Position numbers and translations under genes: made by a program. A stretch of 64,000 bases of DNA from a virus (lineage: Duplodnaviria > Caudoviricetes). Every line of letters starts with the position of its first letter. Positions within the stretch are counted from its first letter, which is position 1. A model generated the notes under the pieces. The model did not search any database and was not told the DNA's origin. It was given only the letters and a program-made list of their open reading frames with translations. The stretch lies in the IMG/VR virus record IMGVR_UViG_3300035208_002115; one strand, written 5' to 3'. Positions 8,370 through 52,187 of the stretch are shown in pieces.

Positions 8370-8385
8370 TTTTATAAAAAATTAG

Positions 8386-8458
8386 CGAGCCAGACAGGAC
8401 TCGAACCTGCGACCAATGAATTTAAAGTCCATTGCTCTACCAACTGAGCTACTGGTTC
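8386..8458 (-). tRNA. tRNA with UUA anticodon (ochre suppressor), tRNA-Lys-like body, no encoded CCA
   Basis: GAACCAG TA GCTC AGTTGGTA GAGC A ATGGA CT-TTA-AA TTCAT TGGTC GCAGG TTCGAGT CCTGT CTGGCTC G; full cloverleaf with one A3.C70 mismatch; anticodon at 8425-8423. Confidence 0.92.
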
Positions 8459-8467
8459 ATAATTGAA

Positions 8468-8497
8468 CAAAAATAAATAAAAGATTAAATATAAAAA
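8468..8497 (-). promoter_or_regulatory. Bacteroidota-type promoter (TATTTTTG -7 box plus upstream TTTTTATAT) driving the tRNA and downstream minus-strand operon
   Basis: CAAAAATA at 8468-8475 on + = TAnnTTTG on -, 9 nt upstream of the tRNA 5' end. Confidence 0.6.
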
Positions 8498-26369: not shown

Positions 26370-26822
26370 TTATACACTTTTAAATTCGATAAATTCTAAA
26401 ATATTTTCATATATTAAAGAACTTCCAAATATTCCAACCAACGCAGAAAAAGTATCACATATAATATCATTCTTATCTTCCTCGGATATTTCATCCAAAG
26501 TATTTAATACAAATTCTATCTCATCATCATCAATGGAAGTAAAATCGGTAGGTAACTCTACATCTTCTATAATTTCTTCGGTTTCAATCTTACTAAAATA
26601 TTTATCCAAAAAATAATCATCTATTGTATTTTTTGCTATTTTGACTCTTATCAATACCAAATTGTTATCAACAACATCAGTTTCAATTATACCACCAAAA
26701 TAATCATCTATAAAATCGGTGATAATTTGATTAGAAAGACAGGAATTTCCAATCCCATTAATTGAATCTGACAATATACTAATTGAATTCTTTTTAAGAT
26801 AATCGGTATTTAATGTAATCAT
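26370..26822 (-). CDS. Acidic hypothetical protein
   Basis: ORF track; D/E-rich. Confidence 0.55.
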   Translation of the reverse strand: MITLNTDYLKKNSISILSDSINGIGNSCLSNQIITDFIDDYFGGIIETDVVDNNLVLIRVKIAKNTIDDYFLDKYFSKIETEEIIEDVELPTDFTSIDDDEIEFVLNTLDEISEEDKNDIICDTFSALVGIFGSSLIYENILEFIEFKSV

Positions 26823-26869
26823 AATTTAAATATAATTTTTAATAAATCATTTTTATATATAAATTAAAT

Positions 26870-27277
26870 ATGAGTTTAAATATGTCATTTATTAAAAATT
26901 ATAACATTTTTATAAACGAAAATATATCTGATGTTAAATTTATCAAACAATATATAGAAAAAACAAATCCACATACTGGTTCAAGAGATGCGTTTCAGGG
27001 AATAGGTCGTTTATCGGATTTTACTTGGAATGTTAAACAAACTTTAATTCAACCAGATGATAAAAAAATAGATTTGGATGATTTATATCCAGCATCTAAA
27101 TTAGATGTTAAGCGATATAAAAAAGCCTATTTAAAGGGGAGTGAATTTCCACCAATAGTACTGGTTGACAAAGGAAATAAATATACTATTTTAGATGGCG
27201 CACATAGATTGAAAGCTGCTATTGAATTGGATGTTCCAATAAGGGCATACATTGGTTATGAAATAAAAAATAAATAA
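26870..27277 (+). CDS. ParB/sulfiredoxin-like N-terminal domain protein
   Basis: FPPIVLV....YTILDGAHRLKAA. Confidence 0.75.
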   Translation: MSLNMSFIKNYNIFINENISDVKFIKQYIEKTNPHTGSRDAFQGIGRLSDFTWNVKQTLIQPDDKKIDLDDLYPASKLDVKRYKKAYLKGSEFPPIVLVDKGNKYTILDGAHRLKAAIELDVPIRAYIGYEIKNK

Positions 27278-27296
27278 TTTACATTTTTTAACATTT

Positions 27297-27372
27297 TTTG
27301 TCATTATGTCAGAAAAAGGTTTTATATTTGTCACGATTTATTAATTAAAACATTTTGGTACGAAATTCGTAC
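27297..27372 (+). promoter_or_regulatory. Bacteroidota-type promoter (TTTG...TATATTTG) plus palindrome GTACGAAATTCGTAC upstream of pth2
   Basis: TTTG 27297-27300; TATATTTG 27323-27330; palindrome 27358-27372. Confidence 0.55.
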
Positions 27373-27401
27373 ACAATAAAAACAAACAAAATTATTGCAT
27401 T

Positions 27402-27761
27402 ATGAAAGAAACATAAATTTACAACAGACTTTACGTAATCACTCGAAGTGATTTACATCCTTCTACTCAGGCGGTTCAAGCCATACATGCTGGTATTCAA
27501 TTTCAGCATGAACACCCAGAAATTTCAAAATCATGGAATGAATTATCTAATTATTTAGTCTTTTTGTCAGTTAATGACGAAAGGGAACTCCTATCTATTC
27601 ATTCTAAAGCAACTCAACAAGGTATTAAAGCGAGTGTTTTTCAAGAACCCGATTTGAATAATCAGGTTACTGCTATTACATTAGAACCAAGTTCTGATAC
27701 GAGAAAACTATGCTCTAATTTACCCTTGGCATTAAAAAACGTAAGTTTTAACAAAAATTAA
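27402..27761 (+). CDS. pth2: Pth2-family peptidyl-tRNA hydrolase with in-frame UAA at codon 5 (readthrough or AUU start required)
   Basis: MKET*IYNRLYVITRSDLHPSTQAVQAIHAGIQF...W...NYLVFLSV...FQEPDLNNQVTAITLEP...LPL; the ORF track captured only the C-terminal 65 aa. Confidence 0.8.
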
Positions 27762-27771
27762 TTTTAAAGTT

Positions 27772-27816
27772 ATGAAAGACACATAAATTTTCACACGAGG
27801 TTCACCAAGTCCATAG
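27772..27816 (+). promoter_or_regulatory. Leader minigene MKDT-UAA-IFTRGSPSP-UAG, in frame with the downstream gene
   Basis: TATGAAAGACACATAAATTT versus TATGAAAGAAACATAAATTT at the pth2 start (19/20 identical). Confidence 0.65.
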
Positions 27817-27888
27817 TTAAAAATTAGGATTTTGAACAAAAATTATTTAAACAAAAATTATTTAAAAACAAAAAACAAAAATTTAATT

Positions 27889-28350
27889 ATGGAAACATTA
27901 GTAAAAAATGACGTAAGATATTCAGTAAGTGCTGAATCTTTAACAGAAAGAATCAAAGAAAATGTTAATACAATCGATAGCTTTGTAAAGAAAAACGGTT
28001 ATCAGTTAACAAACATAACCGAATACAATAATAAATTAAAAGATAATAATTATCTTTTGGGTATTCAAGTATTAATTTCTAAATTATCTCTGAATCAGAG
28101 AAAAAAATTAAGGAATGCTATCAATAGGATTTTCAACAATCCAACTTTAAAAAATGTAAATTACTTTTTACATATTTTATATAGCAGAGTCTTAAAATCT
28201 GACCAGAGAGTTAAGATTAAAAAGAGCGAACAAGAATTAGCCATCGAAAAGGCCAGAAAGGATTGGAAACTATATAGAGATGAGGCCGAGAGATTGAGAT
28301 TAGCTTATAAAGAATTGAAAGGTGATTTCTACAAAAACAAAGTAAAATAA
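27889..28350 (+). CDS. Basic helical hypothetical protein downstream of pth2
   Basis: ATG 27889 (METLVKN); K/R-rich C-terminal helix. Confidence 0.65.
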   Translation: METLVKNDVRYSVSAESLTERIKENVNTIDSFVKKNGYQLTNITEYNNKLKDNNYLLGIQVLISKLSLNQRKKLRNAINRIFNNPTLKNVNYFLHILYSRVLKSDQRVKIKKSEQELAIEKARKDWKLYRDEAERLRLAYKELKGDFYKNKVK

Positions 28351-28449
28351 AATATTTATGCGTTGTAGAACCTATAAACACTATTTATCGATTGTAATAT
28401 CGATAAATAGCGTGATAAATAGAATTATCACCGAAATACGTGATAAAAT

Positions 28450-28477
28450 AAAAAGAGGGTTTTTGACCCTCTTTTTT
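28450..28477. terminator. Bidirectional intrinsic terminator
   Basis: AAAAAGAGGGT-ttttg-ACCCTCTTTTT. Confidence 0.75.
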
Positions 28478-28868
28478 ATTTCACTATTGTAAATTTACTT
28501 TTAATAGCTGAATCTATACCATCTAAAGAATTTTCACCACCAATAAGAATAAAAATTTTATTTTTCTTATTTATAATTTCAAGAGCATCATTTCTAACTT
28601 CAATATCTGCTTTATCAAATTCTTCGAATACATTAATATCATATTTTTTATAAACTCTTTCCAATTCTCCACCCATCAGCATACTAAGCCTTATGACACT
28701 ATATTTTTTTCCTAAATCTGATAATTTTTTATCCAACTTTGTTATAAGTCCAGTTCCAATTTTATTATAAACAAAAATAGGACTGGTTTTTTTATCTATC
28801 AAATTAATAATATCGTTTATTTTATTATCAGTTTTACTAAAGTCCTCAAAAAGTTTTAAATGTTCCAT
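28476..28868 (-). CDS. Degenerate AAA+-like domain protein with CTS-like N-terminus
   Basis: MEHLKLFEDF; broken Walker A (YNKIGTGLIT), FEEFDKAD Walker-B-like, DSAIKSKF. Confidence 0.45.
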   Translation of the reverse strand: MEHLKLFEDFSKTDNKINDIINLIDKKTSPIFVYNKIGTGLITKLDKKLSDLGKKYSVIRLSMLMGGELERVYKKYDINVFEEFDKADIEVRNDALEIINKKNKIFILIGGENSLDGIDSAIKSKFTIVK

Positions 28869-28899
28869 AATTATTTATTATTTTTTTTTTATATATTAA

Positions 28900-48966: not shown

Positions 48967-49578
48967 ATGAAAACATTTATTCTTAAACTAAAATTATTTT
49001 TCCTTCTTACTATTGTTATTTTTTTTAAAAAAATAAATCGTTCTTATAATAAAAATTTTCAAGTGACTGCACTTGAAGATGGTAAGAAGTATTGGATTTC
49101 AAGAAGCGTAGCTGTTGACGCTATGATTTTTATTTATAACCGTCTCGACAGAAAATATTATGTTTTGATGGTTAAACGTGGTAAGGGAGTTAGTTATAGT
49201 GGTTATTATTCGTTGCCGTGTGGTTTCATGGATTTTAATGAGAATGGGTTGCAAGCATTGATGAGAGAACTCTGGGAAGAAACCAATCTAAAATTAGCAG
49301 ACTTACTGAAATTCGAAATCTCAGCTAAGTATATTGATATTCCATATTTCGTAAACACCGAACCATTAAAAATTGATAATCAAAATGTGTCATTATATTA
49401 TGGTTTGGTTTTGGTTGTAAATTCATTACCATCAGTGTCAAATATTAATTGTGAACCAAATGAAATAGATGAAGTAAAATGGGTCGAGATATTTGAAGAA
49501 CTTCCAAAGCTGAGTAAGATTGCTTTTAATCACGAAAGACGTGTTGAAGACTTTTGTAAATTAAATAACATTGGGTGA
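48967..49578 (+). CDS. Nudix hydrolase (ADP-ribose pyrophosphatase-like)
   Basis: SVAVD...LPCGFMDFNENGLQALMRELWEETNL...IAFNH. Confidence 0.85.
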   Translation: MKTFILKLKLFFLLTIVIFFKKINRSYNKNFQVTALEDGKKYWISRSVAVDAMIFIYNRLDRKYYVLMVKRGKGVSYSGYYSLPCGFMDFNENGLQALMRELWEETNLKLADLLKFEISAKYIDIPYFVNTEPLKIDNQNVSLYYGLVLVVNSLPSVSNINCEPNEIDEVKWVEIFEELPKLSKIAFNHERRVEDFCKLNNIG

Positions 49579-52187
49579 ATAAAAAAATTGAAATATTAAG
49601 TTTAAATAATGACGATGAAGTCGTTTTTTTAAGATATTTGAATGAAAGATATTTCAAATTCTCTATTGGTGATAGATTTATGTATATACCATCATCTAAT
49701 GAGTTGTTAATTAACTTAATGAAAGATACAATTAATTTTAACGAAATCGGTTTTGTGAATCATTCTTTAGTTTTATTAAACGGTAAGTTGAATATTATAA
49801 AATACGGTAATAAAATAAAAACAATTCTTTCTGAACATGAGGGAAGACTTCTTGATATCAATTTTCCAAATATATTAGTAGTTAAGATTGACGATATACA
49901 AGGTGGTTTAAAATCATTTGATAGGTCATATGTGACGTTATCCAACTTTAATATGATACATTTTTATAGTGATGAATTTTTTTATATTCAGAACATTGTA
50001 TTTAATTTGATGAATAAGTACGATGAATTCATTAGGAAATCTTTATTAATGAATAATTTTGATTTATTTTTAGCTGAAATTAATAAAAAGGGCGATGATA
50101 GAGATAGAATAAACGATATATTAAATAGTGATAAATACGCACCCCTGATTAGGCAATATAAATTGAAAAGTCTTGGTTTTGATGAGTAAAGAAAAATTTA
50201 TAGTAGAAAAATTTCAGGTTAATGAAGATTGCCAATTAATTGTAGATGATAATGGCGAAATCACTATCTGTAATACTTCTAAAACTCTATATTTATTGAA
50301 CGGTGCATTAATTTTTATGAATGCTACTTATAATAGTGTTTGGTTGCCTGATGATTTATATGAGGATAAATCATTTGAATTGATTTCAAAATATGCCTCA
50401 GTTCGTAAAGAGTATAAAGATGAAATGATAAAAAATAATAAAAGAGTCCAGACTAATTATATTAATAATGATGATAATAAGATATTATTTTATTTGTTTA
50501 ATTGGTATACCAATGATGGTAGATTGTTATCAGTAAAAGAAAATATTAATTTGGAGAATATGTATCTAAGGAGATTGAAAATAAAAAGTATATTATAATG
50601 GATGCTCATACAATAAAACATATTGTTAAGTACGAAGTGATAAAGGATGTATATTTGGACACTTATACTGGTTTAATTGAACTGAAAAAAAACGTTATAT
50701 GTTTTATTTTAAATGATATATTATTTATAGAACAACACTACATAGCATGTATCGTGGATGATACAGAATTAAATAACGGGCGTTTATCTGAATATTTTAA
50801 AAAAATAAAAACTTTTGATGATGTTAAAGTTGAGATAACTAAGATAACCGTAAATAAGAATATTCGGGTAGGACATATATATCTTGATAAATATGGTAAA
50901 CATATTACGGAATATAGTAAATGGTATAAAGACCAATATTATTTAGAAGATTTAGTGGAAATGACTATTGGTGAAATACTATTAGATGACGACCATTATT
51001 GTGATTATTTGGAAACCACAAGATTGGAACGTTACCACATTCGCAAAATGAAATTAAAAGAAATTATTACAGGTGAGTAGATTACTATATCATAAGGTAT
51101 TGGAACATGAAGATAAAGTCGTATTTTTACCATTCCCAAATACGAAAGTATATCAAAAAAAATTTTATACCTTATATTTCAATAAAAATTTTATTTTAGT
51201 TAATCCTAAGAGTATTTATTTTAATCTTGTGAGTGACATCATTCGTAGTACTAAAAATAAACTTTTCAGTGGGGGTTATAAGTTTTATTCATTGGTTATT
51301 CTAAACGATGAACTTTGTTATATAAATTATGGCACTGTTATTAATAATATCATTGAACAGTGGAAAGATAAAGTATTAGATGATACTAATCCAGCCACAT
51401 TGTATATAGTCAAAATAAATAAATATGGATTTCCAGATTTTTCTAAATCTCATATCATAGATAAAACAATATGTATCCAAGAGTATTTAAATGAATATAA
51501 TGTACATAGTCATATGAATAATGTGGTGGATGAGTTAAATTCACTTATTAATATTAATATTATTGATAATACTTTTGAAAATTTTTACAATTGTTTGTTG
51601 AATTTAAACGATGGTGATATAAATAGAGTTATTAACAGTTTAAATTATGTGTCACTCATTAGAAGATATAAATTGAACAAACTCGGTTTTAATGATTAAA
51701 TTATTTTAAAATGAAAAGTATTCATGATGTATGTAATATTACTAAGTTAAAAGCGACTAAAGATATATCATTACCCCATCGCTTTTTTTATAATATTACA
51801 ATAAATACGGGTACTAATGTTGTATTATTAAATAACGTTTTATTTTCAAAAACATTTTATTTTCCGATATTTGAGAATTCGGCTTTTCAAGAAGACTTAA
51901 TAAATAGTTCATTTGAAATAATTGAAAAATTTAATAATATACATGCAATAGCCACTAAGATTGCATACGATAAATACGTTCGTGTTAATCATTGTTATTA
52001 CACAAATGATAATTTATTAATCACAAATTTTAGTAAATGGCATTTTATTGAACAATTAAATAATATAGACGAAAATTCAATTCAAAACAATCTAATAGGC
52101 TTTTTTGATGATTTAAATATCTATGAACAAGTTGAATTAGAAACAAATTACATAAGAAAATTAAAAATAGAAGAAATATTATCATAA
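49575..52187 (+). CDS. Five hypothetical proteins in two interleaved paralogue families (49575 and 51073; 50173, 50598, 51711) with C-terminal RxxK[IL] tag
   Basis: LIRxYKLxxLGFxD ends; YxRxxK[IL]xxI ends; shared RVxxxY and W. Confidence 0.65.

Follow-up and report, generated by a model that had tools for sequence, protein, structure and literature searches.

Phage-encoded suppressor transfer RNAs (tRNAs) that read UAA have been published for the Lak megaphages and for phage G, and their function is so far unexplained. In the Lak megaphages, a TAA-suppressor tRNA is present in 51 of 51 genomes and TAA is not recoded (Crisci et al. 2021, PMC8346664). Phage G carries Sup:UUA (10.1101/2024.12.16.628780), and no surveyed jumbo phage recodes TAA (PMC13037316). 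For XacN1 (PMC5852040) and Summit (PMC9022506), the authors found no suppressor targets. The present analysis concerns a tRNA gene with the anticodon UUA, tRNA(UUA), at positions 8386-8458 of a 64-kb stretch of phage DNA (the window). The phage, labelled G000, is an IMG/VR record of 675,678 bp with 27% GC and a CheckV value of 98%. The tRNA is probably a functional ochre suppressor, whose selected targets would be two UAA codons, codon 5 of a gene for a Pth2-family protein (pth2) and codon 5 of a mini-open reading frame (mini-ORF).

8386-8458, minus strand: tRNA with the anticodon UUA (ARAGORN; Rfam RF00005), the one suppressor among the 40 tRNAs of the genome

Within the window, ARAGORN detected one tRNA; it has the anticodon tta and is encoded by the minus strand (8385-8458). 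The RF00005 model matched 8458-8386 over model positions 1-71 of 71 with 68.3 bits (E 9e-13), above the gathering threshold of 29 and in agreement with ARAGORN, and this score was within the range of the other G000 tRNAs. The anticodon loop C-U-UUA-A-A (C32-U33-U34-U35-A36-A37-A38) has 7 nucleotides (nt), includes U33 and is complementary to the stop codon. Judging from this anticodon, the tRNA probably reads UAG as well as UAA, by wobble. The discriminator is G73 and the variable loop is UGGUC. In the acceptor stem (G1-C72, A2-U71, A3.C70, C4-G69, C5-G68, A6-U67, G7-C66), the only non-standard pair is A3.C70; the other UUA suppressor found, on metagenome contig L149, does not have this mismatch. 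The 3' flank directly after G73 is CTAATTTTTT, indicating that CCA is not encoded in the gene. A sequence-only reading of this DNA had described the cloverleaf, the loop CU-UUA-AA, G73, A3.C70, UGGUC and the lack of CCA, and all of these were correct by sequence, ARAGORN and Rfam, with the gene on the minus strand.

The pth2 cassette, the proposed target, is located 19 kb from the tRNA gene and includes the following features.

27402-27416, plus strand: pth2 leader ATG-AAA-GAA-ACA-TAA (M-K-E-T-stop), followed by ATT-T; proposed suppression site, read from the sequence
27417-27761, plus strand: Pth2-family domain, 114 amino acids (aa) and stop (Pfam PF01981, 36.9 bits, cutoff 23, E 4.8e-9)
27772-27816, plus strand: mini-ORF M-K-D-T-TAA-I-F-T-R-G-S-P-S-P-TAG; second proposed suppression site, read from the sequence
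27889-28350, plus strand: basic ORF of 153 aa directly 3' of the mini-ORF (ORF list; no Pfam match)

After the TAA, the pth2 frame contains no ATG, and the start-codon scan found the first GTG/TTG 49 codons in, beyond the conserved Q..HA motif. The layout in G000 is a PF01981 domain with a short ATG leader, an in-frame stop, no usable later start and a matching UUA tRNA. Relatives show the same type of pth2 leader with TAG in place of TAA. The leader of the mini-ORF, ATG-AAA-GAC-ACA-TAA-ATT, begins ten bases past the pth2 stop, and there are precisely two copies of the 19-nt leader motif in the 676 kb, one in pth2 and one in the mini-ORF. When all frames were scanned for a short ATG leader, a stop and a long open frame without a nearby ATG, pth2 was the only convincing case in the 676 kb. 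Another 22 early-TAA candidates were rejected, as they had an ATG within 12-41 codons or were junk. The sole other start-less frame, at genome 584411-584746, was also rejected, being low-complexity non-coding sequence.

The relation between leader stop and anticodon was followed in 53 pth2 loci from IMG/VR, JGI and other metagenomes, and GenBank phages. A locus was called gated when an ATG leader of 1-9 codons was followed by a stop and the conserved N-terminus was no more than 14 codons on, with no ATG between. By this definition 42 of the 53 loci were gated, and the stop was TAG in 40 and TAA in two (G000 and L149). Since TAG is the rarest stop, used by 7% of genes in G000 and in its relative G006, its dominance in the leaders is not due to chance. 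A suppressor tRNA was present in the fetched DNA at 26 gated loci, in most cases no more than 0.5 kb away, and pth2 was often flanked by one on either side. The anticodon corresponded to the leader stop in all 26 (24 CUA with TAG, 2 UUA with TAA, no mismatch); by chance, such a perfect match is expected once in 325 with fixed margins and relatedness ignored. The Pth2 domains were intact across the 42 gated loci, with 43-60% identity. In other phages the suppressor bodies are unrelated (51-73% identity), and nearly all phage suppressors at pth2 loci have the loop C-U-NUA-A-A in common, including A36-A37-A38 as found in substrates of MiaA. The gated module was also found in the 462-735-kb phages of Al-Shayeb et al. 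(LR756500, LR756501, LR756502, LR756504 and LR745206). At L035, a GC-rich pth2 homologue without a leader stop, there were 32 tRNAs around the gene and no suppressor.

The M-K-E-T-stop leader could also be an upstream mini-ORF in its own right, with Pth2 made by termination-reinitiation at AUU and the tRNA unrelated to it. AUU can act as a weak start codon, as in infC, and the codon after the leader stop was ATT or ATA in most loci. However, at least eight gated loci, including the TAA case L149, carry GUA, GUU, GAC, AAU or AAC after the stop. These are non-initiator codons, indicating that re-initiation at AUU is not the general mechanism. Moreover, with such coupling the stop should vary freely, yet the rarest one was found in 40 of 42 leaders and every visible suppressor matched its leader. 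This explanation is therefore improbable. Programmed readthrough of the pth2 cassette, one of the two roles suggested by the sequence-only reading, is favoured by the complete agreement of stop and anticodon and by the joint loss of cassette and tRNA in G006. That reading had called the suppressor deliberately weak; the A3.C70 mismatch of G000 is not present in the L149 suppressor.

In a synteny search with the flanking proteins, G006 was the only informative relative; the contig of G007 stops short of the site, and LR756500 has no tRNA at the syntenic gene. G006 is the closest relative, with a complete genome of 639,979 bp with terminal repeats and flanking proteins 74-85% identical to those of G000. 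Its genome has 27 tRNAs, none of which is a suppressor. The part of the window from 26746 to 28897, containing pth2, the mini-ORF and the 153-aa ORF, has no counterpart in G006, and the mini-ORF pattern is absent from this phage. G006 retains only a distant 192-aa Pth2 paralogue, which is also present in G000. At the site syntenic to tRNA(UUA), G006 has a degraded tRNA, scoring 35 bits versus 68, which ARAGORN rejects. Three of its five anticodon-stem pairs are broken, and the T-loop is one base short and lacks TTCGA. The anticodon of this relic is still UUA, and a promoter-like stretch upstream is kept. The UUA anticodon of G000 is thus not a private error. The sequence-only reading had asked whether relatives carry TTT here, which would have pointed to a private mutation or sequencing error; the G006 copy reads UUA. 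The decay in G006 also fits a tRNA that lost its purpose once the pth2 cassette was gone. An exact-pattern search for orthologues of tRNA(UUA) in IMG/VR, with the anticodon left free, gave 0 matches.

The decaying sister copy, the A3.C70 mismatch and the lack of CCA would be compatible with tRNA(UUA) itself being an inactive relic, neither matured nor charged, and with pth2 being a pseudogene. The minimum free energy fold of the bare sequence is also not a cloverleaf (z = -0.9), but this is common for tRNAs and was given no weight. Against this, the tRNA scores 68 bits, like the other G000 tRNAs. The early stop is kept in 42 loci with intact Pth2 domains (43-60% identity), and in G000 the leader is present once more next to pth2, again with TAA. 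A relic is very improbable on this evidence.

UAA, which the sequence-only reading had taken as the main stop, terminated 82% of the 618 confident G000 genes, with TAG and TGA at 7% and 11.5%, respectively. With code 11, ORFs of at least 100 aa account for 85% of the genome, and little is gained when TAG or TGA is read as sense. The number of in-frame TAAs in conserved segments was 224 in G000 versus 235 in the suppressor-less G006, mostly in shadow frames. The base after TAA (+4), the distance to the next in-frame stop and the stop usage were equal in the two phages; after ordinary UAA stops, the next in-frame stop follows at a median of 7 codons. The matching in-frame TAA counts and stop usage indicate that TAA is not recoded in G000. 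Genome-wide recoding, against which the sequence-only reading had also argued, was rejected on these counts together with the code 11 coverage and the 82% of genes ending in TAA. No release-factor gene was found in G000, and tRNA(UUA) is its only stop-reading tRNA. As judged from its anticodon (ARAGORN, Rfam 68 bits) and the code 11 genome around it, tRNA(UUA) is a true tRNA of the suppressor type, carried by a genome that uses the standard code, as had been proposed. Several other tRNAs of G000 (Met, Pro, Gln and Trp; genome 132102-132367, 607905-608088 and 646967-647053) are 86-89 nt long and are not class II types, which suggests introns or insertions.

A suppressor in a standard-code genome might be a general tool for low-level readthrough of UAA (and UAG) that extends or disturbs host proteins, or a first step to the reassignment of TAA. 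The pth2 stop would then be a secondary feature, adjusting the amount of Pth2 to how much peptidyl-tRNA stalls or drops off as a result. The Lak megaphages, with a UUA tRNA in 51 of 51 genomes without recoded TAA (PMC8346664) and an ungated pth2-like neighbour in Lak-A1 and Lak-B1, agree with this, as do Sup:UUA of phage G (10.1101/2024.12.16.628780) and the standard-code phage of Borges et al. that gained a suppressor before the code change (10.1101/2021.08.26.457843). In G000, however, the in-frame TAA count, stop usage and back-up stops are unchanged relative to G006, a release-factor gene was not found, and recoding of TAA is not known from any jumbo phage (PMC13037316). General readthrough also leaves unexplained why the tRNA decayed exactly where the pth2 cassette is missing. 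It is an unlikely explanation.

The body of tRNA(UUA) bears on its origin and charging. Bacterial tRNAs that agree with tRNA(UUA) in D-arm, variable-loop end and T-stem were sampled; of the 140 obtained, 104 were Lys (UUU/CUU), 27 Asn, 5 Trp and 4 Thr. The sampled Lys tRNAs had A73 in all 103 readable cases, whereas tRNA(UUA) has G73. All 27 Asn tRNAs had G73 and the TTCGAGTCCTG T-arm, as in tRNA(UUA), and the best phage BLAST matches of tRNA(UUA) were tRNA-Asn. The own tRNA-Lys(UUU) of G000 is about 70% identical to tRNA(UUA), and a search for a paralogue origin inside G000 gave no close paralogue, the best real match being about 70%. Of the earlier suggestion that the tRNA is a U36A derivative of tRNA-Lys, about half holds: the Lys-type body stood (104 of 140), whereas the discriminator is the Asn/Gln-like G73 in place of A73, the identity to the own tRNA-Lys is 70% and the best matches are to tRNA-Asn. 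The body is therefore of Lys or Asn type. By known identity rules, U34 and U35 favour the lysyl-tRNA synthetase (LysRS), U35 and G73 favour the glutaminyl-tRNA synthetase (GlnRS), and the asparaginyl-tRNA synthetase (AsnRS) needs G34 and U36. Both AsnRS elements are missing from tRNA(UUA), and the charged residue would most likely be Lys or Gln. Because the pth2 leader stop sits in the non-conserved N-terminal tail, the identity of the inserted residue is probably irrelevant.

Phage tRNAs that evade anticodon nucleases are known, and the Lys/Asn-type body would suit a decoy or spare part, a Lys-like tRNA that soaks up or escapes nucleases of the PrrC or PARIS type. The sequence-only reading had named this as its second possible role. 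If the tRNA were a decoy, its anticodon would have no cause to follow the stop codon of pth2. Equivalent tRNAs elsewhere have unrelated bodies and CUA anticodons, and G73 is not Lys-like. This role is not supported and is barely credible, since it leaves both the co-variation with the pth2 stop and the differing tRNA bodies unexplained.

From the tRNA, the two gated frames, their co-variation across phages and the joint loss in G006, we infer expression, charging, efficiency and gate purpose as follows. tRNA(UUA) would be transcribed from its own promoter and trimmed, and CCA would be added by the CCA-adding enzyme. A host synthetase would charge it, LysRS being favoured by U34 and U35 and GlnRS by G73 and U35. 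A36-A37-A38 fits the MiaA (i6A37) motif, a modification that strengthens suppressors and may do so here. The charged tRNA would compete with the release factors RF1 and RF2 at UAA-A. Successful readthrough would give full-length Pth2, and failure only a tetrapeptide. Through this competition, Pth2 output and readthrough of the mini-ORF to R-G-S-P-S-P would track the amount of active suppressor. The result would be a translational gate on Pth2 and the mini-ORF, set by the level of suppressor tRNA, with ordinary UAA stops (82% of phage genes) read through at low frequency only. As a guess, the gate couples peptidyl-tRNA clean-up to the suppression level or to the phage tRNA supply.

Two elements flanking the tRNA gene are relevant to its transcription.

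8376-8385, minus strand: CTAATTTTTT, a T-run that with the T-arm/acceptor hairpin resembles an intrinsic terminator (1 site versus 0.1 expected from shuffles)
8468-8475, minus strand: TATTTTTG, a -7 box of Bacteroidota type (TAnnTTTG), candidate promoter, read from the sequence

The TATTTTTG box (8475-8468 in the direction of transcription) ends 9 nt 5' of the tRNA, and this stretch is kept in G006. A -33 TTTG element was not found upstream of tRNA(UUA), and a sigma-70 scan gave no site at the right place. The promoter previously assigned to the tRNA is thus supported in its -7 box and not in a -33 TTTG or sigma-70 element.

The mini-ORF is not confined to G000. At no fewer than 14 other loci, pth2 is followed by a mini-ORF of the pattern M-[KR]-x-T-stop-I-x-I-R-[GAHY]-P-x-stop, and in many the x before the final stop is T, P or D; MKKT*IRIRYPP*, MRDT*ISIRAPT* and MR*IIRGPT* are examples, with MKDT*IFTRGSPSP* in G000. 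The end of the read-through product, of R-G/A-P type, presumably resembles the arrest motifs RAGP and RAPP. The 153-aa basic ORF is possibly controlled by the mini-ORF. In Stenotrophomonas phage Summit, a mini-ORF ATG-AAG-TAG-GTC-TAC-AAG-CCG-CCG-TAA (M-K-stop-V-Y-K-P-P-stop) with an AAGGAGA ribosome-binding site is located upstream of coding sequence (CDS) 069 (CDS069; MZ326862 ~49440-49942; L339:2440-2942), and an amber suppressor tRNA begins 7 nt after CDS069. No homology was detected between the ORF after the G000 mini-ORF and Summit CDS069, and a Pth2 homologue was not seen in the searched half of Summit.

Two further observations concern the Pth2-like genes of G000. About 50 nt upstream of the pth2 leader, at window positions 27336-27352, there is a near-perfect palindrome, GTACGAAATTCGTAC, which could act as an operator or form an RNA hairpin. 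Another Pth2-like ORF, a distant one of ~190 aa with an ATG start, is located at genome 94487-95074, ~1.1 kb past the window end, with a counterpart at 429030-429605 in G006. It has 25-27% identity to the gated Pth2 and no Pfam match, and the G000 and G006 copies are 53% identical.

Several results weigh against a suppressor maintained for pth2. The distance between tRNA and pth2 is 19 kb in G000, compared with less than 5 kb at other loci. G000 shows no adaptation to an ochre suppressor, as stop usage, the +4 base and back-up or tandem stops equal those of G006. Two complete genomes with a TAG-gated pth2 lack a canonical partner: in LR745206 no canonical CUA tRNA was found by a narrow pattern and ARAGORN, and in LR756504 the sole CUA-containing tRNA found has an 8-nt anticodon loop. 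The Pth2 tree cannot show a separate origin of the two TAA/UUA cases, so that they may go back to a single TAG-to-TAA co-switch. Phage G has a UUA tRNA, and the pth2 matches included no record from a Bacillus phage. In Lak-B1 (L184:9344-9416) and Lak-A1 (L336:3233-3305), the UUA tRNA precedes a pth2-like gene by 0.5-0.6 kb, and a single ORF separates the two; translation of this pth2-like gene begins at an ATG of its own, with no gating stop. The association of the tRNA with pth2 is therefore wider than the gate.

Other pth2 loci showed additional features. In the 636-kb phage LR756504, the tRNA at LR756504.1 ~281045-281120 (L322:246-321) has the loop A-U-U-C-U-A-A-C, given as 'tcta' by ARAGORN, and the stop context of its pth2 leader is UAG-A. 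In the cultured Tenacibaculum phage pT24 (L183:4950-5900, BPT24_235), which also has the gated module, the annotated CDS begins 42 codons inside the Pth2 frame, ATG-AAA-TAG lies in frame upstream, and 2.5 kb upstream of pth2 there is an annotated 'tRNA-Sup' (CUA). In the cluster C mycobacteriophages Myrna (L181:2977-3537) and Catera (L185:2977-3678), the GTG start codon of pth2 immediately follows an in-frame TAG. ARAGORN detected a CUA tRNA 130-250 nt downstream of pth2 in both, which is annotated in GenBank as tRNA-Ser or tRNA-Arg(tct). In four contigs of GC-rich 190-kb phages (L082-L085), TGA precedes the pth2 homologue, as M-C-P-TGA or M-G-A-TGA in two of the four. Two tRNAs directly follow pth2 in these contigs (L083:10365-10514 region; also L082, L084 and L085), and their anticodon loops, which include UUUA and GUAAUG, are abnormal in having 6 or 8 nt. 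A UCA tRNA was not found near pth2 in L082-L085, and the leader is not consistently in frame.

Whether the suppressors of standard-code phages form a widespread, undescribed circuit is in our view about evenly balanced. In such a circuit, Pth2 and an arrest-peptide-like mini-ORF, or sometimes the mini-ORF alone, would be translated in proportion to tRNA activity, and the ochre form would show that codon and anticodon can change together, moving the circuit off UAG and onto UAA, the main stop. No published link of suppressor tRNAs to pth2 was found in the literature searched, a limited text search that cannot prove absence. The circuit may explain the universal UAA-suppressor tRNA of the Lak megaphages. 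If it exists, the orphan suppressors of standard-code phages gain a concrete target, the early stop in pth2 and in the mini-ORF, and pth2 would be a case from nature in which an orthogonal tRNA-codon pair turns on a gene. The demands are highest for the ochre form, as UAA also ends four in five G000 genes. For annotation, gene callers miss or truncate gated pth2 genes, as with the pT24 start 42 codons inside the frame. The idea is directly testable in cultured carriers, namely pT24 and perhaps the cluster C mycobacteriophages.

Among cellular systems, the ochre suppressors of Escherichia coli are supG/supL (tRNA-Lys UUA), supB (tRNA-Gln UUA) and supC (tRNA-Tyr UUA). They read UAA and UAG, are weak enough to be tolerated and are laboratory mutants of cellular tRNAs. 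tRNA(UUA) shares with them the anticodon UUA, and its body is of Lys type. The E. coli suppressors have no dedicated target, whereas tRNA(UUA) is a maintained phage gene with G73 and a matched target. An early stop or short leader senses the translation state in prfB (RF2) autoregulation and in arrest-peptide leaders (SecM RAGP, ApdA/ApdP RAPP), and the few-codon mini-ORFs of the lambda bar minigenes are linked to peptidyl-tRNA drop-off and Pth. The pth2 cassette resembles prfB and the arrest leaders in that an early in-frame stop or short leader ORF would be the sensor. In G000, however, the sensed factor would be a phage tRNA and not a release factor or the secretion state, there is no frameshift, and the mini-ORF is a candidate arrest peptide.

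Recoded phages (code 15, TAG=Gln; code 4, TGA=Trp; 10.1101/2021.08.26.457843, PMC6784885) are similar to G000 in that a phage suppressor overrides the host stop and regulation of a gene subset has been proposed. They differ in having hundreds of in-frame stops over late genes and a low code 11 coding density, whereas in G000 the code 11 coverage is 85%, one gene and one mini-ORF are affected and the codon is UAA. XacN1, Summit and pT24 are, like G000, standard-code phages with a suppressor, and pT24 has M-K-TAG before the Pth2 domain. Their suppressors are amber and not ochre, and XacN1 is ambiguous, with an ATG 4 codons past the TAG. The Lak megaphages differ from G000 in recoding TAG and in having an ungated pth2-like gene, whereas G000 has a UAA-gated target, and the Lak and G000 tRNAs are only 68% alike. 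What Lak and phage G share with G000 is a UUA tRNA in a very large, AT-rich genome in which TAA is still a stop.

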